Shown one piece after another: positions 31,488 through 49,037 of a stretch of DNA of 64,000 nt. The DNA lies in NCBI GenBank assembly GCA_965229605.1, contig OZ245892.1:1608102-1672101 (forward strand). The letters are read 5' to 3'. Under the pieces are notes generated by a model. It made no database searches, was not told the DNA's origin, and saw nothing but the letters and a program-made list of their open reading frames with translations. The first letter of the stretch is position 1. Each line of letters starts with the position of its first letter. This stretch comes from Alphaproteobacteria bacterium. Its GTDB lineage: Bacteria; Pseudomonadota; Alphaproteobacteria; CBDDJK01. The position numbers were made by a program, and so were the translations under genes.

Positions 31488-31579
31488 AGCAAACCGGCTT
31501 TCGTTGAGTTTTCTGTCGTATACAGTATCCAGAGATACAATCGCAAGCATAATTCAAAATAGAGCTTGAAGATTTGCGC

Positions 31580-31595
31580 ATACTGTATACAGTAT
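31580..31595. promoter_or_regulatory. perfect 16-bp palindrome ATACTGTATACAGTAT, a candidate GntR-family operator
   Basis: It carries a GT-N-AC FadR/GntR-type core, lies in the divergent gntR / mgsA-like intergenic region, and overlaps the promoter and RBS region. Confidence 0.55.
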
Positions 31596-31615
31596 ACAAG
31601 AAAGGAGAATTTACG

Positions 31616-33264: not shown

Positions 33265-34679
33265 AAAAATCTTATGACTATCCCTTTGAGTTACCGGATG
33301 AGGAAGAAATCCGCTTTAATGATGCTGGGGCCATTGAAGGCCGTCCGGCAGGTGTTCCAAGTTCGTATGATGAAGGGGGCTCGACCCGCTGGACGCCGGA
33401 GGCAATATCCGAAGTCCATGCGCTGGCACAGCTTGGCCGTTATCAGGTGCGCGGTTACAATACGTTCAATAAAAGGATGCCGACCTTTGATGACCTGACG
33501 TTCGTTCCGGCAACCATGACACGCTTGCCGCTGGAAGGATACCGGGAAAGCTGCGACACCACGACCATTCTGGGAGGCGGTCGCGGACCGGATGTGGTGG
33601 CAAGGCCGCTTGAATTGAAAATACCGATCTATATCGCCTCTATGTCCTTTGGCGCATTGTCGGCCTCGGCAAAGGCGTCACTTGGCTTTGGCGCCTCGAA
33701 AGTCGGCACGATGACCTGTACGGGCGAAGGCGGCATGCTGGAAGAAGAGCGTGAAGCGTCACAAAAACTGGTCTATCAGATGTCACCTGCCCGCTATGGC
33801 ATTGACCTTGATCACCTTAGAAGGGCCGATGGTCTTGAAATCGTTGTCGGACAAGGGGCCAAGCCGGGGACAGGCGGCTTATTGCTTGGCATGAAGGTCA
33901 GTCCCCGTGTCTCGCAGATGCGCACTTTGCCAGAAGGCGTAGACCAACGCTCGACAATTCGACATCCTGATTTCCTGGGTGCCGATGATCTTTCTGTCAA
34001 AATTGAAGAACTTCGGATCGCGACAAATTATCAGGTGCCGATTTCCCTCAAGATGGGCGCGACACGTCCACGCTATGATGTGGCGATTGCTGCCAAGGCC
34101 GGGGCAGATATTATCGTTGTCGACGGGGCCGAGGGGGGAACCGGAGCCTCACCAGAATTATTACTCAATCACACAGGCATTCCCAATATGAGTGCTATTC
34201 GGGCCGCACGCGAAAGCCTTGATGAATGTGGCATGTCCGGCAAGGTCAGCCTTGTGGCTGCGGGCGGTATTCGCTCGGGCGTTGATGCAGCCAAATGTCT
34301 GGCTCTGGGGGCTGATGCTGTGATGATTGGCAATGCCGCAATGATCGCCATGGGCTGTAACTCCCCCCGCTATATTGAGGATTATAAGAAACTCGGCACC
34401 TCGCCGGGGGCCTGTCATCATTGTCATACCGGCATGTGTCCGGTCGGGGTGGCAACTCAGGACCCTGAACTGGAGAAACGCATGAATCCAAAAGCGGGGG
34501 CAGAGCGTGTGGCGCGTTATTTGACAGCGATGACGATGGAAATCACGGCGCTGGCCAAAGCCTGCGGGAAATCATCGGTCCATAATCTTGAAGTTGAGGA
34601 TCTTCGCGCCTTGAGTTTTGAGGCTTCTGCCTTTACCGGGGTGAAGATGGCAGGCATTGATCGAGCCTTTGAGTGGTGA
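33249..34679 (+). CDS. FMN-binding glutamate synthase domain-2 family protein (GlxD / MgsC-like)
   Basis: The protein is 476 aa; …IVVGQGAKPGTGGLLLGMKVS… is a GltB domain-2 signature. It overlaps the upstream gene by 16 nt. Confidence 0.75.
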   Translation: MADDLKKSYDYPFELPDEEEIRFNDAGAIEGRPAGVPSSYDEGGSTRWTPEAISEVHALAQLGRYQVRGYNTFNKRMPTFDDLTFVPATMTRLPLEGYRESCDTTTILGGGRGPDVVARPLELKIPIYIASMSFGALSASAKASLGFGASKVGTMTCTGEGGMLEEEREASQKLVYQMSPARYGIDLDHLRRADGLEIVVGQGAKPGTGGLLLGMKVSPRVSQMRTLPEGVDQRSTIRHPDFLGADDLSVKIEELRIATNYQVPISLKMGATRPRYDVAIAAKAGADIIVVDGAEGGTGASPELLLNHTGIPNMSAIRAARESLDECGMSGKVSLVAAGGIRSGVDAAKCLALGADAVMIGNAAMIAMGCNSPRYIEDYKKLGTSPGACHHCHTGMCPVGVATQDPELEKRMNPKAGAERVARYLTAMTMEITALAKACGKSSVHNLEVEDLRALSFEASAFTGVKMAGIDRAFEW

Positions 34680-34686
34680 TCAAATC

Positions 34687-35379
34687 ATGAAAATTGCTGT
34701 CCTTGATCTGACAACCCATCCCGAGAAATATTTAGGTGGCCTGCCCCGGATTTACACGCAGATTGACCGCTGGCTTTCGCCCTGTCTGCCGGAGGCTGAA
34801 TTGGTGGCCTATGATATTGCGGAAGGCGGTCAAAAACTTCCTTCAACCGCCGACTTTGACGGGCTTGTGGTGAGCGGTTCTGAACTTGGAGTCTATGATG
34901 AAGCGGTCTGGATGCAGCCGCTTCGACGATTATTAAAAGATGCAAAAGCAGCCAAAAAGCCTGTATTCGGCATTTGTTTTGGTCATCAGATCATGGCAGA
35001 CACCTTTGGCGGAAAAGCAGAAAAGGCAGAAGTGGGCAGCCAGCTGGGCGCAAGGTCATTCACAGATTCAAACGGCAGTAAAATTGATGCCTATGTCTGG
35101 CATCAGGATCAGGTGACAAAAGTGCCACCGGGGGCCAGCGTTGTTGCCTCTGCCAGCTATTGTCCAGTCGCCGCCCTTGACTATGATTTTCCGGCAATGT
35201 CTGTTCAGTTTCACCCTGAATATAGCGAAACTCACCTTCGGGAGCTTTATGACCGGCTCCCTGAAACCATCCTCTCTGAGGAATCGCGCAAGAAAGCCGT
35301 GGAGTCTTTTAAAGGGGTCACCGTTCCCGCTGATCTTCATGCGCAGGAAGTCGCGGCTTTTTTCAGAAAACATATCTAG
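34687..35379 (+). CDS. class I glutamine amidotransferase-like protein (PuuD/IpuF-like gamma-glutamyl-amide hydrolase candidate)
   Basis: …KPVFGICFGHQIMAD… contains the Cys nucleophile of the GATase1 / peptidase C26 fold, and a C-terminal His/Glu region follows. Confidence 0.6.
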   Translation: MKIAVLDLTTHPEKYLGGLPRIYTQIDRWLSPCLPEAELVAYDIAEGGQKLPSTADFDGLVVSGSELGVYDEAVWMQPLRRLLKDAKAAKKPVFGICFGHQIMADTFGGKAEKAEVGSQLGARSFTDSNGSKIDAYVWHQDQVTKVPPGASVVASASYCPVAALDYDFPAMSVQFHPEYSETHLRELYDRLPETILSEESRKKAVESFKGVTVPADLHAQEVAAFFRKHI

Positions 35380-35388
35380 GATCAGGAG

Positions 35389-36531
35389 CTAACGACCGCT
35401 TGGACTTTCCTTCGGGCTTAATTTGCGGCGACCCTTCACCTTGAAACGCTCCGCCGTGCCATAATCTTTCAGCGCGACACCGGCCACAAAATCGCCGAAC
35501 ACTGGACCATGTTTGAACAGATGCCCGGAGCATCCACCCGCAAACAGAACATTTTTATGCTCAGGATGCCAGTCAACAATGAAATGTGTGTCCGGGGTCA
35601 GGATCACCTGATTAAACTTGGAATCAACCACGCGCTGGCCAATCAGACCCGGCAAACGATGCTGGATATAGCTTCTGGTTTTGTTAAGCGCGTTCTTTTC
35701 AATCAAACGCTCGTCATTATTGATATCAATCGGCGTATGGGGAATGACAACCGCTGCCTTGACCCCCGACCCTTCTGATGACGGAATACCAAAGGACCCC
35801 TGCCCGTGATCAATCCAGCACGGCATATTTTCCATATCAAACTGGTCTGACCCGTCCGGCGTTGACGTATAAAGAACATTAATGCCCATGATAACTGAAA
35901 TTGGCGCGATGGTTTTACGAAACATTTCTGCCATCCAGGCCCCGGTTGCAATCACGATGATATCGGCTTCAAGGGGTTTGCCATCCAGCATCGGGCGTTC
36001 GTTCACATCGGTGGTGACGGTGCCGCGCAGGACCTTTCCACCCTCTTTCTTAAAAAGCGCAAGCGTGGTTATGACACAGCGATGCGCCATCAAAAGTCCC
36101 GCCTCCGGCTCAAACAGCGCATATTGAATTTCATCAACCTTGAACTGAGGAAACCGCGCACGGATATCGGCCTGCGAAAACCGGTAATAGGGGACTCCAA
36201 CCTTGTCAAACGTCTGCGAGGTTGCATCCTCCCAGTCGCAATGCCCCCCGGTCGCAAGGATCAGGGCCCCGCATTCATACATCAGGTTCTGGCCGGTTTC
36301 GGCCTGCAATTCCAGCCAGCGAGACCGGCTTTCACGCGCCCAGCGTGTGTAGAATTCATCGCGCCCGGAAATCGCCCGGATAACCCGGTTATAGTCGCTG
36401 GAGGCGGCTCTTGCATGGCCGGGCTCCCAACGGTCGATCAAGGTCACCTGCGCGCCCCGGCGCTGAAGATGAAGGGCCGTCATGGTGCCAGCAATGCCGC
36501 CACCGACAACATAAACTTTTTCTCTTAGCAT
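35389..36531 (-). CDS. FAD-dependent oxidoreductase (DadA / PuuB / sarcosine-oxidase-beta family)
   Basis: The start MLREKVYVVGGGIAGTMTALHL gives a GxGxxG dinucleotide fold. The longer ORF to 36597 reads through the operator palindrome and I rejected it. Confidence 0.7.
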   Translation of the reverse strand: MLREKVYVVGGGIAGTMTALHLQRRGAQVTLIDRWEPGHARAASSDYNRVIRAISGRDEFYTRWARESRSRWLELQAETGQNLMYECGALILATGGHCDWEDATSQTFDKVGVPYYRFSQADIRARFPQFKVDEIQYALFEPEAGLLMAHRCVITTLALFKKEGGKVLRGTVTTDVNERPMLDGKPLEADIIVIATGAWMAEMFRKTIAPISVIMGINVLYTSTPDGSDQFDMENMPCWIDHGQGSFGIPSSEGSGVKAAVVIPHTPIDINNDERLIEKNALNKTRSYIQHRLPGLIGQRVVDSKFNQVILTPDTHFIVDWHPEHKNVLFAGGCSGHLFKHGPVFGDFVAGVALKDYGTAERFKVKGRRKLSPKESPSGR

Positions 36532-36549
36532 GCTAAAATCACCCTTGCC

Positions 36550-36577
36550 GTATACTGTATAATTGTATACAGTATAC
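36550..36577. promoter_or_regulatory. inverted repeat GTATACTGTATA-ATTG-TATACAGTATAC, the same operator motif, between the FAD oxidoreductase (-) and the GS-like/BMC operon (+)
   Basis: The 12-bp arms are reverse complements of each other and share ACTGTATAC with the 31580 site. A weaker copy, cgtatacagtatcc, lies at 31517-31530. Confidence 0.55.
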
Positions 36578-36684
36578 AAAATGCAGCTTATTGGCAAGCC
36601 CTGTGCCAGAGTATAATAAAGAGATGATAGCGCATAATAAAGGCATCATAGGGCGCAATAACGAGCTAAAAAGGGAGGACTAAC

Positions 36685-37992
36685 ATGCCAGATCAAGATT
36701 TTTCACTGCCAGAAGGGACACATACCGTTGTTCTGGGTTTAGGCGATCTTAACGGGATCATGCGCGGCAAGCGCATACCTTCAAGCCATTGGGACACCAT
36801 CTGCAAAAACGGCAATGCCTTGTCTATTGCGCTTTTTGCATTGGATATGACGTGTGATGTCTGGGATACGCCCTATGTCAATTTTGATAACGGCTATCCT
36901 GACATGCATATGTTCCCGTCAACCAAGCCGATTGCGCTGCCCTGGGAGCCCGGGGTTGCCATGGCATTTGCCCGCGTTGAGGGCATGGACCATAAGCCTG
37001 TTCCGATTGACCCGCGCAATGCGCTTGTTTCTCAGGTGGAGCGTGCAGAAAAGATGGGATTTACGCTTCAGGTCGGGACCGAGCTGGAGTTTCATCTGCT
37101 TGACCCGGAAACGCTGGAGCCAAGAGATCAGGGCATTCAGGTGTACGGTCTGGAACGGGCAGCCGAGCTTGAGCATGTTCTTGGCCCCATCAGACGCCAG
37201 ATCAACGAATGCGGGATTCCGATTGAACAATCGAACCCGGAATATGCGCCGGGCCAGGTTGAGGTGAATATCCGCTATGCGGATGCGCTGCTTGCGGCTG
37301 ACCGGGTTGTGATGTTCCGCACGCTGGTCAAGCAGTTGGCGGCTGCCCATGGCTACAAGGCGACATTTATGGCCAAACCGTTTTTTGAACATTCCGGCAA
37401 TGGTTTCCATGCCCATTATTCTCTCTGGAAAGACGGCAAGAATACTTTTGCCAATGGGGGGAAGCTGAGCGACACGGGTCGTCATTTCCTTGGTGGTATG
37501 CAAAGCCGGATGGCTGAAAATGCGGTCTGTGGCTCTGCCACGGTCAATGGCTATCGCCGCCGCCAGCCTTTCAGTTTCTGCCCGATTAACACAAGCTGGG
37601 GCATCGACAACCGCACGGTCGGCCTGCGCGTGATTGAAGGCAGTGACAGTGCGGTGCGGGTTGAAAAGCGTGATGCGGGGGCGGATTGCAATCCCTATTA
37701 TCTGCTGGCAGCCGATATTGCTGCGGGTCTTGATGGCATAGAGAAATCTATCGAGCCCGGCCCGATATGTGAAGGCAACGGGTATGAACTGGAAGATGAA
37801 CCGCCGATTCCGACTGATCTTGGCACGGCCATCAAGCTGGCCCGGGAGTCGGACTGGTTAAAGAATGTGATGGGCGAGATGCGCTGGGAGCTTTACCTGC
37901 AACAAAGTGAAAGGGAGCTGGCGTTTTTCAACGATTATCTTGCCAATCAGGTGACATCGCATGAGCGCGCGCGGTATTTGAGTAATTTCTGA
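36685..37992 (+). CDS. glutamine synthetase family protein (GmaS/PuuA-like gamma-glutamyl-amide synthetase candidate)
   Basis: The protein is 435 aa with a GS catalytic-domain region (…NPEYAPGQVEVNIRYADAL…FMAKPFFEHSGNGFHAHYSLW…). Its size matches GmaS-type GS-III-like enzymes. Confidence 0.8.
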   Translation: MPDQDFSLPEGTHTVVLGLGDLNGIMRGKRIPSSHWDTICKNGNALSIALFALDMTCDVWDTPYVNFDNGYPDMHMFPSTKPIALPWEPGVAMAFARVEGMDHKPVPIDPRNALVSQVERAEKMGFTLQVGTELEFHLLDPETLEPRDQGIQVYGLERAAELEHVLGPIRRQINECGIPIEQSNPEYAPGQVEVNIRYADALLAADRVVMFRTLVKQLAAAHGYKATFMAKPFFEHSGNGFHAHYSLWKDGKNTFANGGKLSDTGRHFLGGMQSRMAENAVCGSATVNGYRRRQPFSFCPINTSWGIDNRTVGLRVIEGSDSAVRVEKRDAGADCNPYYLLAADIAAGLDGIEKSIEPGPICEGNGYELEDEPPIPTDLGTAIKLARESDWLKNVMGEMRWELYLQQSERELAFFNDYLANQVTSHERARYLSNF

Positions 37993-38613: not shown

Positions 38614-39816
38614 ATGAGTTCGGGCATGAGTTCGGAATTTATTGAGTTTGCTGAAGCCGCCGCAGCGGGTCGGAAGGGCGCAGAAGCCGCTCCCCGGCTC
38701 AATTTGCAAAAAGTGGCTGTTTTGGGCGGGCAGGCTGATGCCCGGCTTTTTGCCGGACTTTGCCTTTCAGAAGGGGCAGAGGTCACGCTTTTTTCGGCTT
38801 ACGGCAGCGAGCTTTCTGCACTGCGTAGCGGGTCCGGTATAAGCCTGCGCGGAGCCGGACCGGTCGGGGTTTATCAGGTTGACCGCAAAGACAGCCCGTC
38901 GGTTCGCTTGACGGCCGAGCTTGATGTGGCGGTAAATGATGCGGACCTCATCTTTCTGACCGGCCCCATTCATAAACAGCGCACCTATGCGATGGTGCTG
39001 GCCGATCACCTTAAAGACGGTCAGGTGCTTGTCCTTTGCCCCGGCAGATCATTGGGGGCTTTAGAAACCGCCTGGATGCTGCGCATTGGGGGGTGTCGTG
39101 CGGACATTACCATTGTTGAAATTCAGGGACTTCCCTACTGGATTGCTCAGGAAGGGTCGGTGCTGCATTTAAGCGAACGCGGAAAGCTGCAAACTGCCAC
39201 CCTGCCCAGAAACCGCCCCGCTGTTGTTGAGGCACTCAACCGCTTCTTTCCTCATCTTCACCCCGTGGACAATGTGCTTGCATCAGGCTTTTCAGACGGC
39301 TCTGCACTGGTCGAATTTCCAGCCCTGCTTTTAGGTGGCCCGGCCATGGGGTCCGGTGCCTTGAAAATCCCGATGGGCGGAACACCACTTGAAGAGAACA
39401 CGAATTTTGCCAATCTGATTGGTTCTGAACAACGCACTTTAATTGAAAAGCTGGCAGCCGAACGCATCGCCGTTGCCGAAAGGTTCGGGGTGCGCATAAT
39501 GCCTGACGTTGATTCATGGATAGACTCATACGCCGGGGCCAGCAAAGGAAGCGGCTGCCGACCGGTGCCGGGTGCAGAAGAAGCAAAAGCGATTTTGCGG
39601 GATGGCGTGATCGGTTCACTGGTGCCTTTGATTTCTGCGGCAGAGCTTGCCGGGGTCGATGTTCCACTCACGCGCTCCATGGTCACAATCGCGTCAAACC
39701 TGTTGGGCGCAGATATCGCTTCTGCCGGGCGGCGGCTGGATACGATTGGCATTCGCGACAATGAACTGGACAGTGCCAGGCTGCGGATGGATGAAATTGC
39801 GACAGGAAATGCATAA
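38614..39816 (+). CDS. NAD(P)-binding opine-dehydrogenase-like / ApbA-N-like protein of unknown function
   Basis: The Rossmann N-terminus is KVAVLGGQADARLFAG, and the 400-aa size and pattern recall octopine/nopaline dehydrogenase-like proteins. The N-terminal SEFIEFAEAAAAGRKG looks like an amphipathic helix followed by a linker. Confidence 0.35.
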   Translation: MSSGMSSEFIEFAEAAAAGRKGAEAAPRLNLQKVAVLGGQADARLFAGLCLSEGAEVTLFSAYGSELSALRSGSGISLRGAGPVGVYQVDRKDSPSVRLTAELDVAVNDADLIFLTGPIHKQRTYAMVLADHLKDGQVLVLCPGRSLGALETAWMLRIGGCRADITIVEIQGLPYWIAQEGSVLHLSERGKLQTATLPRNRPAVVEALNRFFPHLHPVDNVLASGFSDGSALVEFPALLLGGPAMGSGALKIPMGGTPLEENTNFANLIGSEQRTLIEKLAAERIAVAERFGVRIMPDVDSWIDSYAGASKGSGCRPVPGAEEAKAILRDGVIGSLVPLISAAELAGVDVPLTRSMVTIASNLLGADIASAGRRLDTIGIRDNELDSARLRMDEIATGNA

Positions 39817-41195
39817 TGGATGCTGACCTGAAATCAATCGCTGCCGCCAGACATTGTGCGGAAACGGCTTTCCAGGCCTATCAGCAGTTTCTTGGGACAG
39901 AGGTATCGCAGGTTGATGCGATTGTTCAGGCCATGGCCGAGGCGATTGACCCGGAAGCCGCACGGCTTGGGAAAATGGCGGCAGATGAAACCGGCTACGG
40001 TAATGCCGAACATAAGCGGATCAAGGACCTGATGAATGCCAGAGGCACCGCAAGCTGGCTAAGAGAAGTTAAAACGCTGGGGCTTTTGTGGCGGGACGAT
40101 GCCACCAAAGTCGCTGCTTTTGGTGAACCGATGGGGGTTGTCGCCGCCTTGATTCCGGTGACCAACCCGACCTCGACCATCATCTTCAAGGTCTTGTCTG
40201 CGGTGAAGGCAGGCAATGCTATCGTCTGCGCCCCGCATCCACGTGCGGTGAAATGCGGAATTGAAGTCATTAAAATCATGTCCACCGTCGCAGAACAGAT
40301 GGGCGCCCCGAAAGGGCTTATCCAATGTCTGGATCAGGTAACCATTCAGGGCACAGCGGAACTCATGAGCCACCGCAGAACATCGGTTGTGATGGCAACC
40401 GGTGGACCCGCCATGGTGAAAGCGGCCTATTCAAGCGGCAAACCGACGCTGGCAGTGGGGGCAGGCAATGTGCCCTGTTATGTTCATAAATCCATGCGCG
40501 GTGAACTCGCAGAAGTCGCGGCACAGATCGTCGCGTCAAAATCATTCGACTATGGCACCGCTTGCGTGGCGGAACAGGCCGTCATTGCGGACCCTGAAAT
40601 CGCACGCGACCTGCGCCATGAACTCAAACTGGCCGGGGCTTATTTCTGCACGCCGGGCGAAGCGGACCGGCTGGCAAAAGTTATTTTCACCGGCAAACAG
40701 ACCATGGACCCTGCCCGTGTCGGTCAGTCTCCATTCGTGCTCGCCGAATGTGCAGGATTTTCCATCCCGCCAAAAACCACCTGTCTTGTCAGCAACGAAA
40801 CCGAAATTGGCTGGAACCGGCCTTTGTCTGCTGAAAAACTCAATCCGGTGCTGGCCTTCTATGAAGCCCGAGACGGTGATCATGGCGTCGAACTGGCGAA
40901 CAAAATTGCAAAATTCGGCGGGTGGGGACATTCATCTGTCGTCCATACGCATGATCCTCAAATTATTGCAAAATTTTCCCGTATTCCGACCGCCCGCGTG
41001 CTGGTCAATGTGCCCGCCCTTCATGGCGGGGCGGGCTATGCAACCGACCTGGAACCCTCCTTTATGCTGGGAACGGGGACCTGGTCCGGGTCCATGACAT
41101 CAGACAATGTCACCGCTTTGCACCTGATCAATATCAAACGGGTCGCCTATGGAAATCGACCCTGGCGAGACATTTATGAGGAGTACGGGGTTTGA
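39816..41195 (+). CDS. CoA-acylating aldehyde dehydrogenase (EutE/PduP family)
   Basis: The protein is 459 aa. …VVMATGGPAMVKAAYSSGKPTLAVGAGNVP… and the catalytic Cys context (…DYGTACVAEQAV…) are typical of BMC-associated acylating ALDH. The start overlaps the upstream stop (TAATG). Confidence 0.8.
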   Translation: MDADLKSIAAARHCAETAFQAYQQFLGTEVSQVDAIVQAMAEAIDPEAARLGKMAADETGYGNAEHKRIKDLMNARGTASWLREVKTLGLLWRDDATKVAAFGEPMGVVAALIPVTNPTSTIIFKVLSAVKAGNAIVCAPHPRAVKCGIEVIKIMSTVAEQMGAPKGLIQCLDQVTIQGTAELMSHRRTSVVMATGGPAMVKAAYSSGKPTLAVGAGNVPCYVHKSMRGELAEVAAQIVASKSFDYGTACVAEQAVIADPEIARDLRHELKLAGAYFCTPGEADRLAKVIFTGKQTMDPARVGQSPFVLAECAGFSIPPKTTCLVSNETEIGWNRPLSAEKLNPVLAFYEARDGDHGVELANKIAKFGGWGHSSVVHTHDPQIIAKFSRIPTARVLVNVPALHGGAGYATDLEPSFMLGTGTWSGSMTSDNVTALHLINIKRVAYGNRPWRDIYEEYGV

Positions 41196-41815
41196 GCAAT
41201 ATAACCATCCGCGCCATGATGCAGATTGACAATCTGCAACCAAAATTTGCTGCCTATAACGGGGCAACGGTTCAAGGGTCCATTCCGCTTTCAGGCGACA
41301 CCGTCCTTATCGGTGAACTGGCCCCGGGCAACGGCGTTTTTGGCCTGATTGACCGGGCCTTGAAAGCCTCGGCGGTTGAAGCCACCTCCCAGATCGTTGA
41401 ACGGGAATTTGGCTTTTTCATCCTGCGCTCGCCGTCCAATGCCGAAGTCAGCATGGCCAGAGATTCTATCCTGTCCGAACTTGGCGCGACCCTGTCTGAT
41501 CGCCTTAAACCTGAAATCAGCTCAACCCAGATTATCACCTCGGTTGAACCCCATCAGGCACAGCTTCTCAACAAATGGCGAAAAGGGTCGCTTCTGGTTC
41601 CCGGACAAACCCTCGGCATTATCGAATGTGCGCCTGCGGCCTATATTTCGATTGCGGCAAACGAGGCCGAAAAAGCCGCAGAAATAGATATGGTCGAAAT
41701 CCGTGCGGTTGGACGCTTTGGTCGGCTTTTTATCTCGGGGTCGGAAAATTCGGTAAAGACCGCCGTTGAGGCCGCCATTAAAGCCATTGATGCCGTTGAT
41801 GGAAAATCCGGCTAA
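41192..41815 (+). CDS. tandem-BMC-domain shell protein (BMC-T)
   Basis: The protein is 207 aa with two BMC-like halves. The second half, …GIIECAPAAYISIAANEAEKAAEIDMVEIRAVGRFGRLFISGSENSVKTAVEAAI…, fits the BMC fold. The start is a TTG overlapping the ALDH stop (or the ATG at 41216). Confidence 0.65.
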   Translation: MSNITIRAMMQIDNLQPKFAAYNGATVQGSIPLSGDTVLIGELAPGNGVFGLIDRALKASAVEATSQIVEREFGFFILRSPSNAEVSMARDSILSELGATLSDRLKPEISSTQIITSVEPHQAQLLNKWRKGSLLVPGQTLGIIECAPAAYISIAANEAEKAAEIDMVEIRAVGRFGRLFISGSENSVKTAVEAAIKAIDAVDGKSG

Positions 41816-43002
41816 TGGCAGGACGAATTGTCGGATCGGAACTGATTGAGGATGCCCGCCAGCGCGGACGGATCGTCTTTGAAGTGCTGCCTGATGATAT
41901 CATCACCGCGCTTGCCCGGGAAACTGCCGAGCGTCTTGGCATAAAGCTGGTAAACGGGCCCATCGAAAAACCCGCCGCTGTCAGGACAGATGGACAGTCT
42001 GCAATGCGGCGTGGATTATATCGGCGCGGCGCAAAATGGGTGGCCCCACGCAGATCGCTTTCTGCGACAACCAGACGCTTTACAAAAATCGGCCTGATCG
42101 GGGCTGGAGGCGTTGGCACCAACATTGCCCATCTGGCCGCCATGAGCGATATGGCAGACGAAATCACGCTGGTTGATATTGCACCGGGCATTGCGGCGGC
42201 AACCGCGCTTGATCTCAATCACGCCAGCGGCATCACCCGAAGCCGCGCCCGCTGCATCGGCAGTGAAGACCTGAGTGCTATTTCCGGGTCAGATGTTGTC
42301 GTTGTAACGGCTGGAAGGGCGCGCACGCCTGGCATGAGTCGCAGTGATTTAATTGAAACAAATGCACGGGTCATTCGTTCTGCTGGCGAGGCGATAAAAA
42401 CGGTCGCCCCCCATGCCATCGCCCTTGTTGTCACCAATCCGCTTGATGAAATGACTGTCGAGATGTTGCGGGCAACCGGTTTTCCACGAGAACGGGTGCT
42501 TGGCATGGCTGGCACACTTGATTCCAGCCGCTTCAGACATGCGCTTGCCCGGGCAGCCGGAGTCACGCCAGCAGATGTTGAAGCGATTACGCTTGGCAGC
42601 CATGGCGAGGAAATGGCCCCCATCCCTTCCCTGGCCCGGATCAAAGGACGTGCGCTCACAACCTGTTTGAGCGAGGATCAGATTAACGCCTGTGTTCAAG
42701 AGGCGGTGACAGGTGGCGGACAGGTTGTTGCGTTGAAAAAATCCGGTTCCGCCACAATCGCGCCCGCCCATGCAACCATCGAGATTATGAATCATCTGCG
42801 GGGTGCCCTTAGTGGATCTGTGCCTGTATCGGTGATGCTCAAGGGGGAATATGGGATTTCCGATGTCGTTTTGGGGGTACCAGCGCATCTTGGGCAGAGT
42901 GGCTTGCTGGAAGTTGAAGAATTGCGCCTTTCTGAACAGGAATTGACCGCACTCAGAAAAGCGGCAGGTGCGATCAAAGAACGTATCGGGATAAACGGAT
43001 GA
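41815..43002 (+). CDS. L-lactate/malate dehydrogenase family protein with an about 95-aa N-terminal extension
   Basis: The LDH/MDH core runs from KIGLIGAGGVGTNIA…ITLVDI…VVVTAGRARTPGMSRSDL…LDSSRFRHAL. The N-terminal about 95 aa (MAGRIVGSELIEDARQRGRIVFEVLPDDIITALARETAERLGIKLV…) is not part of the LDH fold. The start overlaps the BMC-T stop (TAATG). Confidence 0.75.
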   Translation: MAGRIVGSELIEDARQRGRIVFEVLPDDIITALARETAERLGIKLVNGPIEKPAAVRTDGQSAMRRGLYRRGAKWVAPRRSLSATTRRFTKIGLIGAGGVGTNIAHLAAMSDMADEITLVDIAPGIAAATALDLNHASGITRSRARCIGSEDLSAISGSDVVVVTAGRARTPGMSRSDLIETNARVIRSAGEAIKTVAPHAIALVVTNPLDEMTVEMLRATGFPRERVLGMAGTLDSSRFRHALARAAGVTPADVEAITLGSHGEEMAPIPSLARIKGRALTTCLSEDQINACVQEAVTGGGQVVALKKSGSATIAPAHATIEIMNHLRGALSGSVPVSVMLKGEYGISDVVLGVPAHLGQSGLLEVEELRLSEQELTALRKAAGAIKERIGING

Positions 43003-43403
43003 TTATCAAACACCGAGCCGGTGGACGGTTTGAGGAAATCGGGTCCTATTCGCGGGCAAAGCGGGTTGGCCCCTTTGTTTATGTGGCTGGCACGACTGCC
43101 ATCGAACCAAGCGGGAAACTGCATGCCCCCGGCGATACCTATGCGCAATCAATCTTTATTCTGGGACGCATTGAAAATGCCTTAAAGGAAGTTGGCGCAA
43201 ATCTGACCCATGTGGTCCGCACCCGCGCCTATTTGACGGATATGTCGCAGGCTGGTGGCTTTGTTCGTGCGCATGGCGAGGTTTTTAAATATATTGATCC
43301 GGTGCTGACAGGCGTTGAAGCCGGACTGACCCAGCCCGGCATGATGGTCGAAATTGATGTCGATGCCATCATTCATAATGCCGATGGCGTGATCGACTAT
43401 TAG
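42999..43403 (+). CDS. ridA: RidA family (YjgF/L-PSP) reactive enamine/imine deaminase
   Basis: The protein is 134 aa; …VYVAGTTAIEP…AQSIFILGRIENALKEVGANLTHVVRTRAYLTDM… is the RidA signature. The ATG overlaps the upstream stop (ATGA). Confidence 0.8.
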   Translation: MIIKHRAGGRFEEIGSYSRAKRVGPFVYVAGTTAIEPSGKLHAPGDTYAQSIFILGRIENALKEVGANLTHVVRTRAYLTDMSQAGGFVRAHGEVFKYIDPVLTGVEAGLTQPGMMVEIDVDAIIHNADGVIDY

Positions 43404-43418
43404 GGACCCAAACCTGGT

Positions 43419-44126
43419 TCACGCCCCAAAATAACTTTTTGCCAGCATATCATCTTTGGACAATTCTGCCGCCGTTCCACTCGCCGTTATATGTCCGCTT
43501 TCCAGCACATATAATCTCTGGGCAAGCGAAAGGGCAAAATTCGCATTTTGCTCGGTCACAATAACCGTCAGGCCAAACTCGGCACTCAATCGCTTTAAAA
43601 CCTCGGCAATCTCCAGACAGATTTTTGGCGCAAGACCTATCGTCGGCTCGTCAACCAGAAGAATCCTCGGCGAGGTCATCATGGCCCGGCCCAGCGAAAC
43701 CATCTGACGCTCTCCACCAGACTGGGTTGAGGTCTCCTGATTTTTGCGCTCCGCAAGACGCGGAAACAACTGCTCAACGGCTGCAAGATTTTTCGCGATA
43801 TCGTCTCTTGCGCTATAGGCTCCGACAAGCAAATTATCGCGCACCGACATATGGGGAAAGAGATTAAAACGCTCCGGCGCATAGCCAAGACCCTGCTCAA
43901 CCATATATTTTGGCTTCTTGCCTGTGACATCAATACCCTCCAGCTTGATCGTCCCACGGCACGAAACCAGCCCCATGATACTATCCAGAAGCGTCGATTT
44001 GCCAGCCCCGTTTGCGCCAACAATCGCAATGGTTTCCCCCTCCTCAACATGCAAATTAATATCCGTGAGGGCTTGAGCCTTGCCGTAAAAAGCACTCAGA
44101 TTTTCAATCTCGAGCAATGACATCAA
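43419..44126 (-). CDS. ABC transporter ATP-binding protein, LivF-type (branched-chain amino acid/amide family)
   Basis: Walker A GANGAGKSTLL and the LSGGERQ signature are present. The protein is 235 aa. Confidence 0.8.
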   Translation of the reverse strand: MMSLLEIENLSAFYGKAQALTDINLHVEEGETIAIVGANGAGKSTLLDSIMGLVSCRGTIKLEGIDVTGKKPKYMVEQGLGYAPERFNLFPHMSVRDNLLVGAYSARDDIAKNLAAVEQLFPRLAERKNQETSTQSGGERQMVSLGRAMMTSPRILLVDEPTIGLAPKICLEIAEVLKRLSAEFGLTVIVTEQNANFALSLAQRLYVLESGHITASGTAAELSKDDMLAKSYFGA

Positions 44127-44854
44127 GCGGCTCCCAGGTAAGAGGAACGCACAGATTCATCCGCAAGAACATCCTTGAAGCTGCCTTGTGCCAGCAAGCT
44201 GCCGCGCTCAATCGCAAGGGCACGGTCCACAAGCGGCTCCATCGCCGGAAGATCATGACTGACCATCAAAAAGGTGAAACCGTCCTTGCGCAGCTTTTGA
44301 ATGACCTCTGATATCATGGAAATTTCACCCCGGGTGAGACCGGCAAACACCTCGTCCAGCAAGAGTATTTTTGCCCCCGTCGCCAATGTACGCGCAAATT
44401 CAAGTTTGCGCAGATCCCCCATCGCAAGCTCAGAAACCTGCCGCTCAAGGTCTGTGGGCGAAAAACCAACAGCTTCAGCAAGTTCCTGTTCTTTATTGAG
44501 ATCGCTTTTGGCAAAAATCATCCGCAAAATACTGTCCGGCATAAGACCCACCCGAATATTCTCCCGAACCGTCAGGTCCCCAAAAGGCTTGGGTACCTGA
44601 TAGGTGCGGCTCACCCCTTTTGAAATCCTCTGCGCCGTGCCAAGCTTTGAAATCTCCTTGCCAAACAATTTGATCGACCCGCTGGTCTGAATATGCTCCC
44701 CCATAATCAAGGAGAAAATCGTGGTCTTGCCTGCACCATTCGGGCCAATCAGACCCAGCGACTCGCCTTCAAACAGATCAAAACTCAGATCATTGGTAGC
44801 AACCAGCCCGCCAAACTTCTTGACCAGATTGCGCACCTCAATGACAGCACTCAT
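44123..44854 (-). CDS. ABC transporter ATP-binding protein, LivG-type
   Basis: The start MSAVIEVRNLVKKFGG follows a GAGGGG RBS, and Walker A GPNGAGKTT is present. I rejected the longer ORF to 44992. Confidence 0.8.
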   Translation of the reverse strand: MSAVIEVRNLVKKFGGLVATNDLSFDLFEGESLGLIGPNGAGKTTIFSLIMGEHIQTSGSIKLFGKEISKLGTAQRISKGVSRTYQVPKPFGDLTVRENIRVGLMPDSILRMIFAKSDLNKEQELAEAVGFSPTDLERQVSELAMGDLRKLEFARTLATGAKILLLDEVFAGLTRGEISMISEVIQKLRKDGFTFLMVSHDLPAMEPLVDRALAIERGSLLAQGSFKDVLADESVRSSYLGAA

Positions 44855-45795
44855 CAAGCTTTTCCCCTCAACCGTGTAATGGCAGTTTCCACAATCGCCA
44901 CAATGCCTTTCGGCTGATACATATATAAAACCAGCGCAATCCCGCCATAGACGAAATAACGCTCGGCTCCTGGCAGAAAAGGCCGCAGCCACTCCAATAG
45001 AAATACAAGGAAAAAAGCCCCGAAGATTGGGCCGATAATGGTCCCGGCCCCGCCAATCAGGGCCGCAACCAGAATTGTGAACAGGAAATTGATGTCAAAC
45101 AATGCACGCGGGGCAAGCGACCCCAGATAGTGAACATAAAATGCACCCGACACACCGGCAACAAAAGCAGAAACCAGAAAGGCAAAAGCTTTCAGCCTGG
45201 TCGTGGACAAGCCGGACCCCGCAACACTCTCTTCATTCATGCCGATGGCCCAAAGGGCGGTGCCAACCCGGGTCCGCATAAGCAACCAGGCCCCGATGGA
45301 CAAAACCAGCAAAACGGAAACGGCAAGATAATAGCCGTTTTCAGCCCCCCGCGTAAGGGTTTGAATGCCAGACATTCCGCGTGTGCCGCCGGTCAGATCA
45401 GGGCGGATAACCTGAACCAGCTGATACATCAATTCCATGAAGGCAAGGGTAACCAAAGCAAAATAGGAGCCTTTGATGCGCAGTGCGGGCATTAAAATAA
45501 TCAGCCCGGCGATCATGGTGACAATGACCGCGATTGGAATGGAAAACTCCACAGGGACATCAAAACGCTTGCTGAGAATGGCGGTTGTATAAGCGGCGAT
45601 CCCGATCAGGAACGGATGACCAAAACTTATATAGCCTGTTCGCCCGGACAGAATGTCCCAGGAAACCGCAAAAGCTGCAAGATAACAGGCAAATATCATG
45701 GTTCTTAATGTGCCTTTTGAAACCAGTTCCGGCAGCAGCAGCAGCCCCAGAATAAAGGCCCCCCAAAGGGCGATATGATGGAATCGCAAATTCAT
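44854..45795 (-). CDS. ABC transporter permease, LivM-type
   Basis: It is a 313-aa polytopic membrane protein whose stop overlaps the livG-type start. Confidence 0.75.
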   Translation of the reverse strand: MNLRFHHIALWGAFILGLLLLPELVSKGTLRTMIFACYLAAFAVSWDILSGRTGYISFGHPFLIGIAAYTTAILSKRFDVPVEFSIPIAVIVTMIAGLIILMPALRIKGSYFALVTLAFMELMYQLVQVIRPDLTGGTRGMSGIQTLTRGAENGYYLAVSVLLVLSIGAWLLMRTRVGTALWAIGMNEESVAGSGLSTTRLKAFAFLVSAFVAGVSGAFYVHYLGSLAPRALFDINFLFTILVAALIGGAGTIIGPIFGAFFLVFLLEWLRPFLPGAERYFVYGGIALVLYMYQPKGIVAIVETAITRLRGKA

Positions 45796-45807
45796 TTAAT
45801 TTTCTGC

Positions 45808-46659
45808 TTAGCTTTCCGCGCGGCCAAAGATTCCTTGCGGGCGCAAAACAAGCACACCGATAATCAGCAGCATGGTAAAGACGCCCCGAAGCTCGGGCGC
45901 CCAGAGCGAAACAACGATGACTTCAAGAAATCCGATGATATGGGCCACCAGCAAGGTGCCGATAATTGAACCAATACCGCCGACAATCACGACTGCAACC
46001 GATATAATCAGGGGGGCAACCCACATCCCCGGGTAAAGCTGGGTGTATGATGCGAAGAAAACCCCGCCCAGCGCACCAAGCCCACCAGAAATTCCCCAGG
46101 TAATCAGGTTGATGCGATCTGGATCAACCCCGGAAATAGCCGCCCCCTTCGGGTCCATGGACACGGCTTGCATGGCCCGCCCCGTATGGGTGCGACTGAT
46201 ATAGAAGTAAAGGGCGATAATCACGGCCCAGCTGATCAGTGCTGCAACCAGAATATTAAAGGTAACTTGCGCGCCAGCAACGGTGATAACGCCTGGAATG
46301 ATCGGCAAAAGAATCTTCGAGCTGTCTCCGAACAACAGAATAATGCCTGCCTGAATGATAACAGCGACGATCAGTGTTGAAATTTCAACCGCAACATGAT
46401 TGCCTTTAAGCGGTTTGACAATGAACCGATGCTTCAGGCAGCCGATCAGAATGCCGATAAAGACTGCTCCCAGGATACCGATAAACTGCGGCATTCCAAG
46501 CAGCTGAGAAAGCCAGAAATAGCCATAGCCGCCTGCCATAATATATGCACCATAGGCAAGATTGAGTGTTCGCCCGACAGAAAATATCAACATAAATCCC
46601 ATCGATATCAGGGCATATAATCCACTCAAGAGCATACCCTGAATAATGATTTGCATCAT
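45808..46659 (-). CDS. ABC transporter permease, LivH-type
   Basis: It is a 283-aa polytopic membrane protein. Confidence 0.75.
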   Translation of the reverse strand: MMQIIIQGMLLSGLYALISMGFMLIFSVGRTLNLAYGAYIMAGGYGYFWLSQLLGMPQFIGILGAVFIGILIGCLKHRFIVKPLKGNHVAVEISTLIVAVIIQAGIILLFGDSSKILLPIIPGVITVAGAQVTFNILVAALISWAVIIALYFYISRTHTGRAMQAVSMDPKGAAISGVDPDRINLITWGISGGLGALGGVFFASYTQLYPGMWVAPLIISVAVVIVGGIGSIIGTLLVAHIIGFLEVIVVSLWAPELRGVFTMLLIIGVLVLRPQGIFGRAES

Positions 46660-46733
46660 TGATTTTAAACCTGTTGATAGATAAGGGCGATCATTTGACC
46701 GCCCTTATCTTGCACATATAGGTCTTGCACAGG

Positions 46734-48020
46734 TTAGTTTGACGGCACCCAGCTTGGCAGGTCAAACGTGGTGTTGGCATATTCAAACGGATAGACCACG
46801 CCGACAGAACCGTCTTCTTTCCATTGAATAACAACCATTGAAGGCTGTGCATCCTCATACGGTGCACTCAAATCAAAAAGCGCATTTTGCGGATAGGTCC
46901 GATTGGTCACTTCTTCAACCTCGCCATGCTGCCAGAATCCATAACGCAGCCAGAGTTTACCGTCTTTCTCCAGTTTGAGGTCTTGCTTCAGCATAGCCTT
47001 GTTCCAGGCCTTTGCTTCAAAGCCGCCTGCTTCTTCCGCAGCGGCCATCGCCTGCTTGAGTCCGTAATAGGCGTTAAAGCCGTTGAAATGAGGAATCTCC
47101 GGACGCGAAGTATATTTGGCCTGATAGGTATCGATAAATTTCTGGCTGACAGGATCAAGCTCAAACCCGACCGAAGGAACCGGGCTCAAGGTGGAAATGC
47201 CGCCACCGGCACCGCCTGTATCCCCCCAATATTCCAGACCCAAGGCAGAAACATTGATGCCGGTCATCGCCATTGGCACTTGCAGTTTCACATATTGTGA
47301 CGACATCACCTGCGAATTAACCGAAGAAATCTGATAGATGAAGTCTGCGCCCGTTTCCTGTGCTTTTGAAAAGATCGGCGCAAAGTCTACCGTGTTCACA
47401 TCATATTTGATGATATCCTTGACTTCAATGCCGGCAACAGGTGACAGCGCATCAGTGACCAGACCCGTGATGGCTTCACCAAAGGCCGTGTCTTCAGCAA
47501 GGACAACGACACTGTCAAACCCCATTTGTTTCTTGAGCACGTCCGCGCCAAACTGAATATAAAGCGTTGCAAGGGCCTCATCAGACGCAATATTCATAAA
47601 GTACGGAGCCATTAAATCAGGGTCTTCAACCACCATATCAATGATGCCGATATAAGAGGTCCAGGTGTCCAGAGTCGGGATTTGATATTCCTGCATACGC
47701 GGCAACCACCCCAATGACACATCGTCGATTGAACCAGAGATAATAAAGTCTACCTCTTCGGTTTCAGCAAGATATTCATAAGCCTTCACGCCTTCAGTGG
47801 GGTCTTCACCGGTATCTGCCTTGACCAGGGTTATTTTTTGCCCGCCGAGCACGCCGCCTCCGGCGTTTAGCTCTTCGATAGCAATTTCAGCCCCCCGCAA
47901 GGTGGAAAGCCCCGTATCAGAACTCAAAGAGCCGATAAAGCCGACTTTGATATCTGCTGATGCGGATGTCGCAATCAGGGCTGCCGAGACACCAGCAGCC
48001 AGCGTTTTCAATAGTTTCAT
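46734..48020 (-). CDS. ABC transporter periplasmic substrate-binding protein (LivK/amide-urea PBP1 family)
   Basis: The start MKLLKTLAAGVSAALIATSASA is a signal peptide after a GAGGAG RBS, followed by …DIKVGFIGSLSSDTGLSTLRGAEIAIEELN…. Confidence 0.7.
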   Translation of the reverse strand: MKLLKTLAAGVSAALIATSASADIKVGFIGSLSSDTGLSTLRGAEIAIEELNAGGGVLGGQKITLVKADTGEDPTEGVKAYEYLAETEEVDFIISGSIDDVSLGWLPRMQEYQIPTLDTWTSYIGIIDMVVEDPDLMAPYFMNIASDEALATLYIQFGADVLKKQMGFDSVVVLAEDTAFGEAITGLVTDALSPVAGIEVKDIIKYDVNTVDFAPIFSKAQETGADFIYQISSVNSQVMSSQYVKLQVPMAMTGINVSALGLEYWGDTGGAGGGISTLSPVPSVGFELDPVSQKFIDTYQAKYTSRPEIPHFNGFNAYYGLKQAMAAAEEAGGFEAKAWNKAMLKQDLKLEKDGKLWLRYGFWQHGEVEEVTNRTYPQNALFDLSAPYEDAQPSMVVIQWKEDGSVGVVYPFEYANTTFDLPSWVPSN

Positions 48021-48111
48021 TCTTTCACTCCTCTTTTTATATATGAATGATGTTTGTGTACATGGATACAATATATGATATAAGCAAACTCTAACCGAAA
48101 AAGACAGCCTT

Positions 48112-48921
48112 TTATTGATCAAAAGAATGTCTAAAGAAAACCCGAAGCTGATCGGTTACAATTTCCGGGTTTTCCAGATTAGAAATATGCCCGGCGTCTG
48201 GAATAACAGACAAGCTCCCTCTTTGAACACGCGCAGCAATCTCTGCCGAATAAGCGATAGGTGTTTCGTTGTCCTCCGCCCCGACCATGGCAAGAACCGG
48301 GCAGGCAATGTCCGGGAGCTTGTCCAGAGCATTATGGGCCCCGACCAGTCGGACAGAATGTTCAAGGCCGCTGCGTCGTGCCCTTGACATAGCACTTATA
48401 CAGGCAACCAAAGCGTCTTTGGAACAGGCCGGACCCGTCATCGCCGCACATAGCTCGGCACTCAATTCTTCTATCTTCACGCCAGCCGCAAGCCTGGCCA
48501 GTAGCGGATCAACAAATTCCTCAGGCTTCATGTCGCCGCTAAAGCCAAACTTCGGCGAACTGTCGAGGATGGCAACAGACGTGCAGATTTCCGGGTGTAC
48601 CTCTACAAAATGCTGCAAAATCATACCGCCCAGCGACAGTCCTGCAAAATGAGCCTTTTGCAGTCCCAGCTGTTGCGTGACGAAACGATGCAGTATCGCG
48701 ACAATTTCATCCATGTCAGAATCCGGGGAAACGTCTGAACTCTCGCCAAAGCCGGGCATGTCCCAGGCAATGCAGCGGAATTCATCTGAAAGATCAGTCA
48801 GTTGCGGCTCCCAAGAAGTCGCAGAGCCAACCAATGCATGGAGGAAAATAATCGGGGGGCCCGAAGTGCCTGCCTCCAGAAAAGAGATACCCCCCGCCAT
48901 GTGTTTTGAAATTGAGGTCAT
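48112..48921 (-). CDS. alpha/beta-fold hydrolase
   Basis: …PPIIFLHALVGSATSWEPQ… is followed by the nucleophile elbow GLSLGG. The start at MTSISKH is inferred. Confidence 0.7.
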   Translation of the reverse strand: MTSISKHMAGGISFLEAGTSGPPIIFLHALVGSATSWEPQLTDLSDEFRCIAWDMPGFGESSDVSPDSDMDEIVAILHRFVTQQLGLQKAHFAGLSLGGMILQHFVEVHPEICTSVAILDSSPKFGFSGDMKPEEFVDPLLARLAAGVKIEELSAELCAAMTGPACSKDALVACISAMSRARRSGLEHSVRLVGAHNALDKLPDIACPVLAMVGAEDNETPIAYSAEIAARVQRGSLSVIPDAGHISNLENPEIVTDQLRVFFRHSFDQ

Positions 48922-49037
48922 CTCGCAAGCCGTTTTATTTTTATTGCATTTGGAGCCGCAGAATGTATGAATAGGCTTATGTATACATGGATACATGCCC
49001 GTGTAAAGCCCCGGAATAAAGCCCTTGTGTAACGCCG

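Follow-up and report, generated by a model that had tools for sequence, protein, structure and literature searches.

The 64,000-nucleotide stretch analyzed here, referred to as the window, comes from an Alphaproteobacteria bacterium (assembly GCA_965229605.1, contig OZ245892.1, positions 1,608,102 to 1,672,101). It contains a bacterial microcompartment (BMC) operon encoding a lactate/malate dehydrogenase (LDH/MDH) family protein with an N-terminal extension, referred to here as the MDH-like protein. On balance, our data favor the reading that this protein is a catalytically intact, NAD-dependent enzyme of the LDH-like MDH type that acts on 2-oxo/2-hydroxy dicarboxylates, that would be anchored to the shell by an EutQ-type module, that is a fixed component of MIC2-type loci, and that may recycle NADH. 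The feature is a re-discovery of a catalogued MIC2 lactate/malate dehydrogenase. The MIC2 locus type was described by Sutter et al. (2021, Nat Commun 12:3809, Supplementary Data 2), who assigned the shell proteins of Ruegeria sp. ANG-R, Ca. Rhodobacter oscarellae, and other Rhodobacteraceae to it and gave its function as unknown. Among the MIC2 enzymes they listed a pfam02866 protein, a 6-phosphogluconate-dehydrogenase-like protein, and a pfam00120 glutamine synthetase. The pfam02866 protein was recorded as having an N-terminal extension of approximately 70 amino acids that occurs in BMC loci only, also in MIC1, and that has detectable homology to the EutQ/cupin-like superfamily. A preliminary description of this DNA had proposed a novel module; that claim does not stand, as the protein, its BMC-specific extension, and the resemblance to EutQ are all in the 2021 catalogue.

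Both Pfam domains that define the LDH/MDH superfamily (PF00056 and PF02866) exceed their gathering scores in the MDH-like protein. Ldh_1_N spans residues 90-230 (E 3e-35, 121.7 bits against a cut-off of 27) and Ldh_1_C spans residues 234-391 (E 3.5e-25, 89.4 bits against a cut-off of 22.6), with the GxGxxG Rossmann motif at residues 96-101. With BMC-P, BMC-H, BMC-T, and aldehyde dehydrogenase (AldDH) genes adjoining, the preliminary description was correct in placing an LDH/MDH-family protein within a BMC operon. The extension that it put at roughly 95 residues is present, and its length is 89 residues when counted to the start of the Pfam domain at residue 90. Searched alone against Pfam, the extension had no match at E up to 10. 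The gene is also translationally coupled on both sides, as had been claimed: the BMC-T stop and the MDH-like start share one nucleotide (TAATG), while the MDH-like stop and the start of the RidA gene overlap by 4 nucleotides (ATGA). The BMC-T stop and the MDH-like start overlap or lie at most 2 nucleotides apart in 64 of 68 loci, and this near-universal coupling is a new point of the present analysis. Neither a second LDH/MDH gene nor a second copy of the extension module was found in the window.

We found more than 100 homologues of the whole protein in a database search, with 72-99% identity and lengths of 390-396 amino acids throughout, mainly from marine Rhodobacteraceae. Within the extension, strong conservation was observed at residues 4-51 and at a second motif, motif 2, at approximately residues 63-78. 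Across 67 full-length members, pairwise differences at codon positions 1, 2, and 3 were 0.31, 0.18, and 0.63 for residues 4-47; 0.26, 0.13, and 0.60 for motif 2 (residues 63-78); and 0.24, 0.17, and 0.61 for the Rossmann domain. By these figures, the extension is translated and under purifying selection. These data also bear on a rival explanation, in which the start has been mis-called on an ordinary cytosolic malate dehydrogenase or the extension is a functionless lineage-specific tail. Database annotation as plain 'malate dehydrogenase' agrees with that explanation, which we nevertheless consider very improbable: the extension has been conserved in Alphaproteobacteria, Gammaproteobacteria, and Actinobacteria, it shows substitutions of the coding type, its start and the stop of BMC-T are coupled, and it was never seen without BMC genes where the flank sufficed. 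A mis-called start in particular was rejected because of the conservation of the extension together with the start/stop coupling.

Structure prediction of the extension, which had been suggested as a check, indicates that it has two parts. An AlphaFold2 (AF2) model built from a 32-sequence alignment reached a mean predicted local distance difference test (pLDDT) score of 89 and a predicted template modeling (pTM) score of 0.80, with a well-defined dehydrogenase core. A model that used 15 close homologues instead was unusable (pLDDT 52). In the former, residues 1-50 are predicted to form a small alpha/beta unit (pLDDT 81-96) made of helices at residues 8-16 and 32-41 and strands at residues 21-24 and 44-47. 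This folded module of approximately 48 residues is followed by a linker that the model places with low confidence: pLDDT falls below 50 for residues 57-81, 10-residue block means range from 45 to 72 over residues 51-90, and a short helix at residues 60-67 lies within the low-confidence residues 51-88. In the model, the extension is therefore a folded module and then a linker that carries the second conserved motif, a division that is new relative to the 2021 catalogue.

We asked which known proteins the folded module resembles. In a pairwise BLASTP comparison, residues 4-65 of the MDH-like protein aligned with residues 2-70 of Escherichia coli EutQ (E 1e-3). Since the EutQ Pfam/cupin domain (PF06249) covers EutQ residues 84-231 only, the likeness is to the non-cupin N-terminus of EutQ. 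The MDH-like protein itself had no cupin or EutQ Pfam match, which places it outside the EutQ family proper (PF06249). The NCBIfam EutQ model was matched by 11 of 12 extensions at positions 4-63 (best E 5.6e-4) and was the sole consistent match of the extensions among 18,950 NCBIfam models. A hidden Markov model (HMM) of 91 extensions, actinobacterial ones included, matched E. coli EutQ residues 1-49 with 28.2 bits. EutQ was its top non-family match (E 1.3e-6) among 18,413 six-frame open reading frames (ORFs) from all DNA fetched in the analysis, where noise reached at most about 9 bits. Furthermore, a bridging protein, P0167, matches the extension with an hhalign probability of 94%, and P0167 in turn has matches to the N-terminus of EutQ and to the C-termini of TIGR02536 Eut proteins and of PduM. 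The case for homology to EutQ rests on the 91-sequence HMM, the curated EutQ model, and P0167. The P0167 matches are also indirect evidence that the PduM C-terminus carries a related module.

The function of this region of EutQ has been studied in the Salmonella Eut compartment. EutQ residues 1-99 suffice to target green fluorescent protein to the compartment, and their deletion separates shell from cargo; the helices H1/H2 (residues 9-41) bind EutM and EutL, which are shell proteins, while H3/H4 (residues 62-99) bind cargo encapsulation peptides (2025 study, PMC12487888). Loss of PduM leads to partial separation of core and shell (PMC12108088). Because residues 1-48 of the MDH-like protein are homologous to the H1/H2 region, a reported shell binder, they most likely form a shell-binding anchor. 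This homology supports the earlier suggestion that the extension may be a targeting domain. Judged from these alignments, the EutQ homology lies in the N-terminal shell-binding region and not in the cupin, which is new and refines the 'cupin-like, ligand-binding' idea of the catalogue. A ligand-binding or regulatory domain, in keeping with the phrase 'EutQ/cupin-like, possibly interacting with a ligand' (Sutter et al. 2021, Supplementary Data 2), is an improbable alternative. The similarity is to EutQ residues 1-49 and stops short of the cupin domain at 84-231, the matched EutQ region is a shell-binding element (PMC12487888), and a module of about 48 residues is small for a ligand pocket.

We next considered where the extension occurs. 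A scan of one genome per species with a 12-sequence alignment of the extension yielded 71 loci in Rhodobacterales, Hyphomicrobiales, Geminicoccaceae, Granulosicoccaceae, Chromatiales, Solirubrobacterales, and other Actinomycetes. Wherever the flank is long enough, these loci all have the order glutamine synthetase (GS)-like ligase, BMC-P, BMC-H, opine-dehydrogenase-like protein, AldDH, BMC-T, and MDH-like protein; the FAD oxidase gene is divergent in these loci, and the N-methylglutamate-synthase-like (Mgs-like) trio lies upstream in most. No extension without BMC genes was seen among the 71 loci where the flank sufficed. A search with the extension profile against 1.84 billion representative proteins gave 48 matches at E up to 1e-3. 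Most of these, all of the best-scoring ones among them, are short or full-length proteins that match along the whole extension and were read as family members or fragments, while three (P0164, P0167, and P0168) are small, module-only proteins that are not MDHs. P0167 adjoins a tandem-BMC protein, P0164 adjoins an EutQ-type cupin ORF, and P0168 lies between AldDH and BMC-H/BMC-P genes. Both searches indicate that the EutQ-type module is restricted to BMC-associated proteins. The preliminary description had allowed that the extension might be a common domain of free-living LDH/MDH homologues; it was instead found only on LDH/MDH-like proteins of BMC loci and on a few other BMC-linked proteins, which also answers the proposal to look for homologues elsewhere in BMC loci. 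The module, which has no Pfam family, appears to be a building block of BMCs in general.

Several further observations concern the module and its carriers. P0167, P0164, and P0168 (loci L075, L076, and L077/L078) contain two or three tandem module copies and come from unrelated BMC loci of metagenomic origin. The peripheral-subunit-binding domain of 2-oxoacid dehydrogenase E2 (Pfam E3_binding) is matched by the module's second helix (TPLAxxxAxxxGVxI), at residues 144-162 of P0168 (25.3 bits against a cut-off of 23.7) and residues 55-72 of P0167; this likeness could reflect convergence on a protein-protein interaction motif or distant homology. In a Solirubrobacteraceae locus (L064), a plus-strand ORF of 338 codons starting at about position 19196, approximately 9 kb downstream of the BMC locus, ends in one EutQ-type module, which scored 18.8 bits (E 8.7e-4) among the 18,413 ORFs. 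Its product is Pro/Ala/Gly-rich and disordered-looking and may be another shell-linker protein. Proteobacterial loci have RidA coupled to the MDH-like gene, and all actinobacterial ones lack it (L063-L072 compared), making RidA accessory and not core. P0136, a metagenomic protein of 456 amino acids, is an apparent MDH-like/RidA fusion whose C-terminal half is frame-shifted and of low complexity before it continues as RidA; it is probably an assembly or frameshift artefact. Among the candidates that were set aside, P0160 (a eukaryotic leucine-rich-repeat protein) and P0165 (an ABC substrate-binding protein) were judged from their sequences to be spurious local matches, and ORF +1397 of L079 (15 bits) appears to be a chance match in a membrane protein.

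We then examined the catalytic core. Among solved structures, the MDHs 4plh and 1uxh/1guy are nearest (E 3e-68 to 2e-66). In canonical LDH/MDH numbering, Arg102 corresponds to R170, Arg109 to R176, Asn140 to N208, Asp168 to D236, Arg171 to R239, and His195 to H263. These six catalytic and substrate residues, together with the NAD-type Asp121 (the equivalent of Asp53), are invariant in all 67 members, and with GxGxxG the protein has every residue expected of a catalytically active LDH/MDH. The residue at position 102 is known to select dicarboxylates when it is Arg, as in MDH, while LDH has Gln there. In the alignment, R170 pairs with the Arg in the PRKPGMSR of 4plh and 1uxh, as in an MDH, and the substrate loop reads TAGRARTPGMSR in the MDH-like protein compared with TAGIPRKPGMSR in 4plh. 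The NCBIfam MDH subfamily PRK06223 was matched above its cut-off (315.9 bits against 283). Because Arg102 is conserved in 67 of 67 members, an oxaloacetate-like dicarboxylate is favored and pyruvate is unlikely. Given these residues, a 2-oxo-acid reductase that works in the lumen and recycles NAD+ is plausible. MIC2 is one of several metabolosome types with an AldDH and without known in-shell NAD+ regeneration, which 'has yet to be determined' (2024, PMC11626177).

A divergent match, P0159, led to an actinobacterial sister clade of approximately 18 clusters, with named members from Leucobacter, Nocardioides, and Nocardioidaceae. These proteins retain the module, motif 2 (RTLYRRHPGFVP), GxGxxG, the NAD-type Asp, and Arg171, and they lack Arg102, Arg109, Asn140, Asp168, and usually His195. 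Their loci have the same architecture as that of the window and are probably MIC1, which the 2021 catalogue places in Actinobacteria (Sutter et al. 2021). Judged by its residues, the sister-clade protein is a probable pseudoenzyme. With these residues lost, canonical LDH/MDH chemistry is impossible in this clade, and the family therefore has a conserved role that does not need catalysis, for which a multivalent shell-cargo linker, by analogy with EutQ, is the obvious candidate. The existence of a catalysis-lost sister clade that keeps the extension is new in the present analysis. In the window's own lineage, where the active site has been kept in full, a dual role is favored.

These data make it possible, to a lesser degree than the reading we favor, that the protein chiefly links shell and cargo structurally, as the counterpart of EutQ or PduM in MIC1/MIC2; in this view, an oligomeric Rossmann fold displays several shell-binding modules and cargo-binding motifs, and chemistry is secondary or dispensable. 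The sister clade fits this explanation directly, as it keeps the extension, motif 2, GxGxxG, and the NAD-type Asp in the same locus architecture after losing its catalytic residues. In addition, the MDH-like protein is the sole protein in the window with an EutQ-type module, and EutQ and PduM both hold core and shell together (PMC12487888, PMC12108088). The MIC2 AldDH was recorded as having no encapsulation peptide (Sutter et al. 2021, Supplementary Data 2), and therefore something must recruit it. Yet the invariance of catalytic and substrate-binding residues in 67 of 67 relatives suggests that enzymatic activity is maintained, and structural and catalytic roles are compatible, as EutQ has both. 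An extended form of the linker idea, which we put forward tentatively, is that the MDH-like oligomer acts as an organizing hub of the BMC: its EutQ-type modules would grip the BMC-H/BMC-Tdp shell, motif 2 would capture cargo (e.g., the acidic helix of the opine-dehydrogenase-like protein), and the sister clade would keep only the structural role, possibly with NAD(H) binding.

The favored reading, a shell-anchored and catalytically intact enzyme, can be put as a sequence of steps. LDH-like MDHs are usually tetramers. The EutQ homology and the gene coupling suggest that the module would anchor the MDH-like oligomer to the inner face of the shell, where its partner may be the surface of the co-translated BMC-T or of BMC-H. 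Because Arg102 and the active site are intact and no other recycling enzyme was found, the enzyme would re-oxidize the NADH made by AldDH by reducing an oxaloacetate-like acceptor, in place of the missing alcohol dehydrogenase. Hypothetically, the protein may also help to tie cargo to the shell, as EutQ does.

Several results weigh against this reading. Regarding the anchor, the similarity to EutQ is modest: when a 12-sequence extension profile was compared by hhalign with E. coli EutQ as a single sequence, the result was E 0.0096 with a probability of 4%, and EutQ missed E 1e-3 in the library-wide search with the extension profile. The binding by the EutQ region is known from Eut shells with BMC-H and BMC-Tsp, while the shell here has BMC-Tdp. 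Regarding the chemistry, an extra Arg lies two residues ahead of Arg102 in 63 of 67 members, and the MDH equivalog TIGR01763 was missed (263.7 bits against a cut-off of 351.85). By these scores, the MDH-like protein reads as a divergent paralogue whose substrate need not be oxaloacetate. Given the catalysis-lost sister clade, NAD+ recycling is not a universally conserved role of the family. The opine-dehydrogenase-like enzyme is an equally possible NADH sink; the preliminary description had called the MDH-like protein, coupled between BMC-T and RidA, the only additional NAD-dependent enzyme there, which needs correcting for the operon, as this neighbor is a second NAD(P) candidate. No functional study of any family member was found in the literature searched, on BMCs together with malate dehydrogenase, N-methylglutamate, or Ruegeria.

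The divergence from MDH and the unusual Arg are also what would be expected if the protein performed a pathway step, interconverting a 2-hydroxy/2-oxo dicarboxylate derived from the BMC substrate (e.g., a 2-oxo acid formed from an imine by way of the FAD amine oxidase and RidA). The translational coupling of RidA in Proteobacteria agrees with such a step, as do the conserved FAD amine oxidase and opine-dehydrogenase-like enzyme, which make or use imines and 2-oxo acids. We regard it as doubtful: RidA is missing in actinobacterial loci that retain a catalytic MDH-like protein, no specific substrate can be named, and the sister clade without catalytic residues would lack the step.

By gene content, the locus is of the MIC2 type (Table 1). 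On the plus strand, the gene order is the Mgs-like trio, a class I amidotransferase, the GS-like ligase, BMC-P, BMC-H, the opine-dehydrogenase-like protein, an acylating AldDH, BMC-T, the MDH-like protein, and RidA; the divergent FAD amine oxidase gene sits between the amidotransferase and the GS-like ligase. Neither an iron-containing alcohol dehydrogenase nor a phosphotransacylase (PTAC) was found among the scanned genes of the operon or the scanned larger ORFs of the window. A homologue of the BMC-T carries CsoS1D_N plus BMC, and the 207-residue MIC2 BMC-T proteins of the Tdp type form 'Tdp_bluish_MIC2' in the tree of Sutter et al. (2021). The AldDH scored 474 bits with the NCBIfam model for acetaldehyde dehydrogenase (acetylating) and 294 bits with the SauS-like model. 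The GS-like ligase fell below the NCBIfam cut-offs of both the type III GS and the gamma-glutamylputrescine synthetase-like models.

The nearest Protein Data Bank entry to the opine-dehydrogenase-like protein is 1BG6 (an opine dehydrogenase, E 2e-18). It has a short acidic N-terminal helix with a conserved FxEFAEAA motif, which is a candidate encapsulation peptide; a helical encapsulation peptide of approximately 10 residues is recorded for the 6-phosphogluconate-dehydrogenase-like/opine-dehydrogenase-like MIC2 protein (Sutter et al. 2021, Supplementary Data 2). At approximately residues 38-44, its dinucleotide-binding motif reads GGQADA in the window, compared with GGGxDA in most of about 60 homologues, and Gln in place of the second glycine may alter NAD(P) binding in the window's protein.

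Table 1. Coordinates of the MDH-like gene, the parts of its product, its neighbors in the window, and the sister-clade members
Feature	Position	Strand	Basis or remark
LDH/MDH-family gene with N-terminal extension	41815..43002	+	ATG start; 395 aa plus stop
Small folded module, candidate shell-binding, aa 1-48	41815..41958	+	AF2 fold; EutQ N-terminal H1/H2 homology
Flexible basic linker, aa 49-89	41959..42081	+	Low AF2 confidence; contains motif 2
Motif 2, aa 63-78, consensus RRxLYRRxxKWVAP	42001-42048	+	Conserved from Proteobacteria to Actinobacteria; coding-type substitutions
LDH-like MDH catalytic core, aa 90-395	42082..42999	+	Catalytic residues; closest structures are MDHs
N-methylglutamate-synthase-like trio (GATase-II-like, GXGXG, Glu_synthase) and class I GATase/Peptidase_C26 hydrolase	31574..35379	+	Pfam
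FAD amine oxidase, sarcosine/N-methyltryptophan oxidase-like, divergent	35389..36597	-	Pfam DAO; NCBIfam SolA/MSOX-like; position conserved across loci
GS-like gamma-glutamyl-amine ligase candidate	36685..37992	+	Pfam Gln-synt_C
BMC-P shell gene	37992-38264	+	Pfam EutN_CcmL
BMC-H shell gene	38285-38581	+	Pfam BMC
Opine-dehydrogenase-like protein, 6PGDH-like superfamily	38614..39816	+	Pfam Octopine_DH
CoA-acylating AldDH, NADH producer of the metabolosome	39816..41195	+	Pfam Aldedh
BMC-T, 207 aa, double-stacking Tdp type, coupled to the MDH-like gene	41192..41815	+	Pfam BMC
RidA/Rid-family deaminase, coupled 3' of the MDH-like gene	42999..43403	+	Pfam Ribonuc_L-PSP
Liv-type ABC transporter: two ATPases, two permeases, Peripla_BP_6 binding protein	43419..48122	-	ORFs; Pfam for the binding protein
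Sister-clade members	L073:10001-11188, L074:7658-8845, L079:10001-11179		Proteins P0159, P0169-P0186

A Liv-type ABC transporter lies beside the BMC operon in 45-48 loci; in the window, its ATPases and permeases were named by sequence, as the Pfam scan covered the binding protein only. Because the GS-like ligase, Mgs-like trio, FAD oxidase, opine-dehydrogenase-like protein, RidA, and AldDH are conserved, the locus suggests catabolism of a small primary amine via gamma-glutamyl and N-alkyl-glutamate intermediates to an aldehyde. The same partners suggest that this aldehyde would become an acyl-CoA by oxidation inside the shell. Neighbors that are absent from other loci (a family III CoA-transferase, an alpha/beta hydrolase, a Rieske oxygenase, an aldo-keto reductase, and an AMP-ligase) were rejected as parts of the system. 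The genes for the alpha/beta hydrolase and the family III CoA-transferase lie just past the transporter (window positions 48112-50258) and adjoin the locus in 1 of 71 genomes; the CoA-transferase could recycle CoA in a metabolosome without PTAC. Elsewhere in the window, a DnaA-family ORF of 619 residues (Bac_DnaA plus DnaA_C, positions 18707-20566), which seems long for DnaA, coincides with the lowest GC content of the window's first half (0.477 at 18-20 kb).

If the MDH-like protein recycles NADH as we propose, the private-cofactor problem would have a second solution, in which a 2-oxo acid/2-hydroxy acid shuttle crosses the shell. If it is an organizing hub, it would do for MIC1/MIC2 what EutQ does for Eut, and in the catalysis-lost clade a Rossmann pseudoenzyme would serve as a shell-cargo linker. 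That clade offers a natural experiment that separates structural from enzymatic roles. The EutQ homology suggests a portable shell anchor of approximately 45 residues that is used on different enzymes, is distinct from classical encapsulation peptides, and could serve the loading of engineered compartments. The locus is found in several marine families (Rhodobacterales, Granulosicoccaceae), so that its substrate, which is probably a small amine, may also be relevant to the marine cycling of nitrogen and carbon.

Compared with known systems, the MDH-like protein agrees with the pfam02866 LDH/MDH of MIC2 and MIC1 in locus composition and in its BMC-specific N-terminal extension. Ruegeria sp. ANG-R and Ca. 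Rhodobacter oscarellae, both catalogued as MIC2, are among the homologues found here, with 72-76% identity. There is no substantive difference between the catalogued protein and that of the window, which is another member; what differs is the description, with an extension of approximately 70 residues and an 'EutQ/cupin-like' ligand idea in the catalogue and 89 residues here, made of a 48-residue non-cupin EutQ-type module and a linker with motif 2. EutQ itself aligns N-terminus to N-terminus (residues 1-48 with EutQ 1-49), and in both proteins the module is followed by a flexible region and is fused to an oligomeric enzyme domain within a metabolosome. The fused enzyme is a cupin acetate kinase in EutQ and an LDH/MDH fold here, and the cargo-binding helices H3/H4 of EutQ have no detectable counterpart in the MDH-like protein, which has the basic motif 2 in that place. 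The shell partner of EutQ is EutL, whereas that of the MDH-like protein would be BMC-Tdp.

Classical encapsulation peptides, as on PduP, PduD, EutC, and EutE, consist of an amphipathic helix of approximately 18 residues and a linker. The extension resembles them as a BMC-specific N-terminal addition to an ordinary enzyme with a poorly conserved linker. It differs in its predicted structure, a conserved 48-residue alpha/beta module with two helices and multiple strands at residues 5-47 of the AF2 model instead of a single amphipathic helix, and its contact would be with the shell and not with the cargo core. Among LDH-like MDHs, the Chloroflexus aurantiacus enzyme (1GUY/1UXH; LDH-like type 3) shares the fold, Arg102, the catalytic set, and the NAD-type Asp (E approximately 2e-66, identity approximately 42%). 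The MDH-like protein differs from such enzymes in its 89-residue extension, its BMC operon, its score below the equivalog cut-off, and its loop, GRARTPGMSR compared with G(I/A)PRKPGMSR. Finally, PduQ and EutG are iron-containing alcohol dehydrogenases that recycle NAD+ in the lumen. By analogy, the MDH-like protein is proposed to share with them the re-oxidation of NADH inside the shell, although their fold is unrelated, and the acceptor here would be an imported 2-oxo acid, whereas in PduQ and EutG it is the pathway aldehyde.

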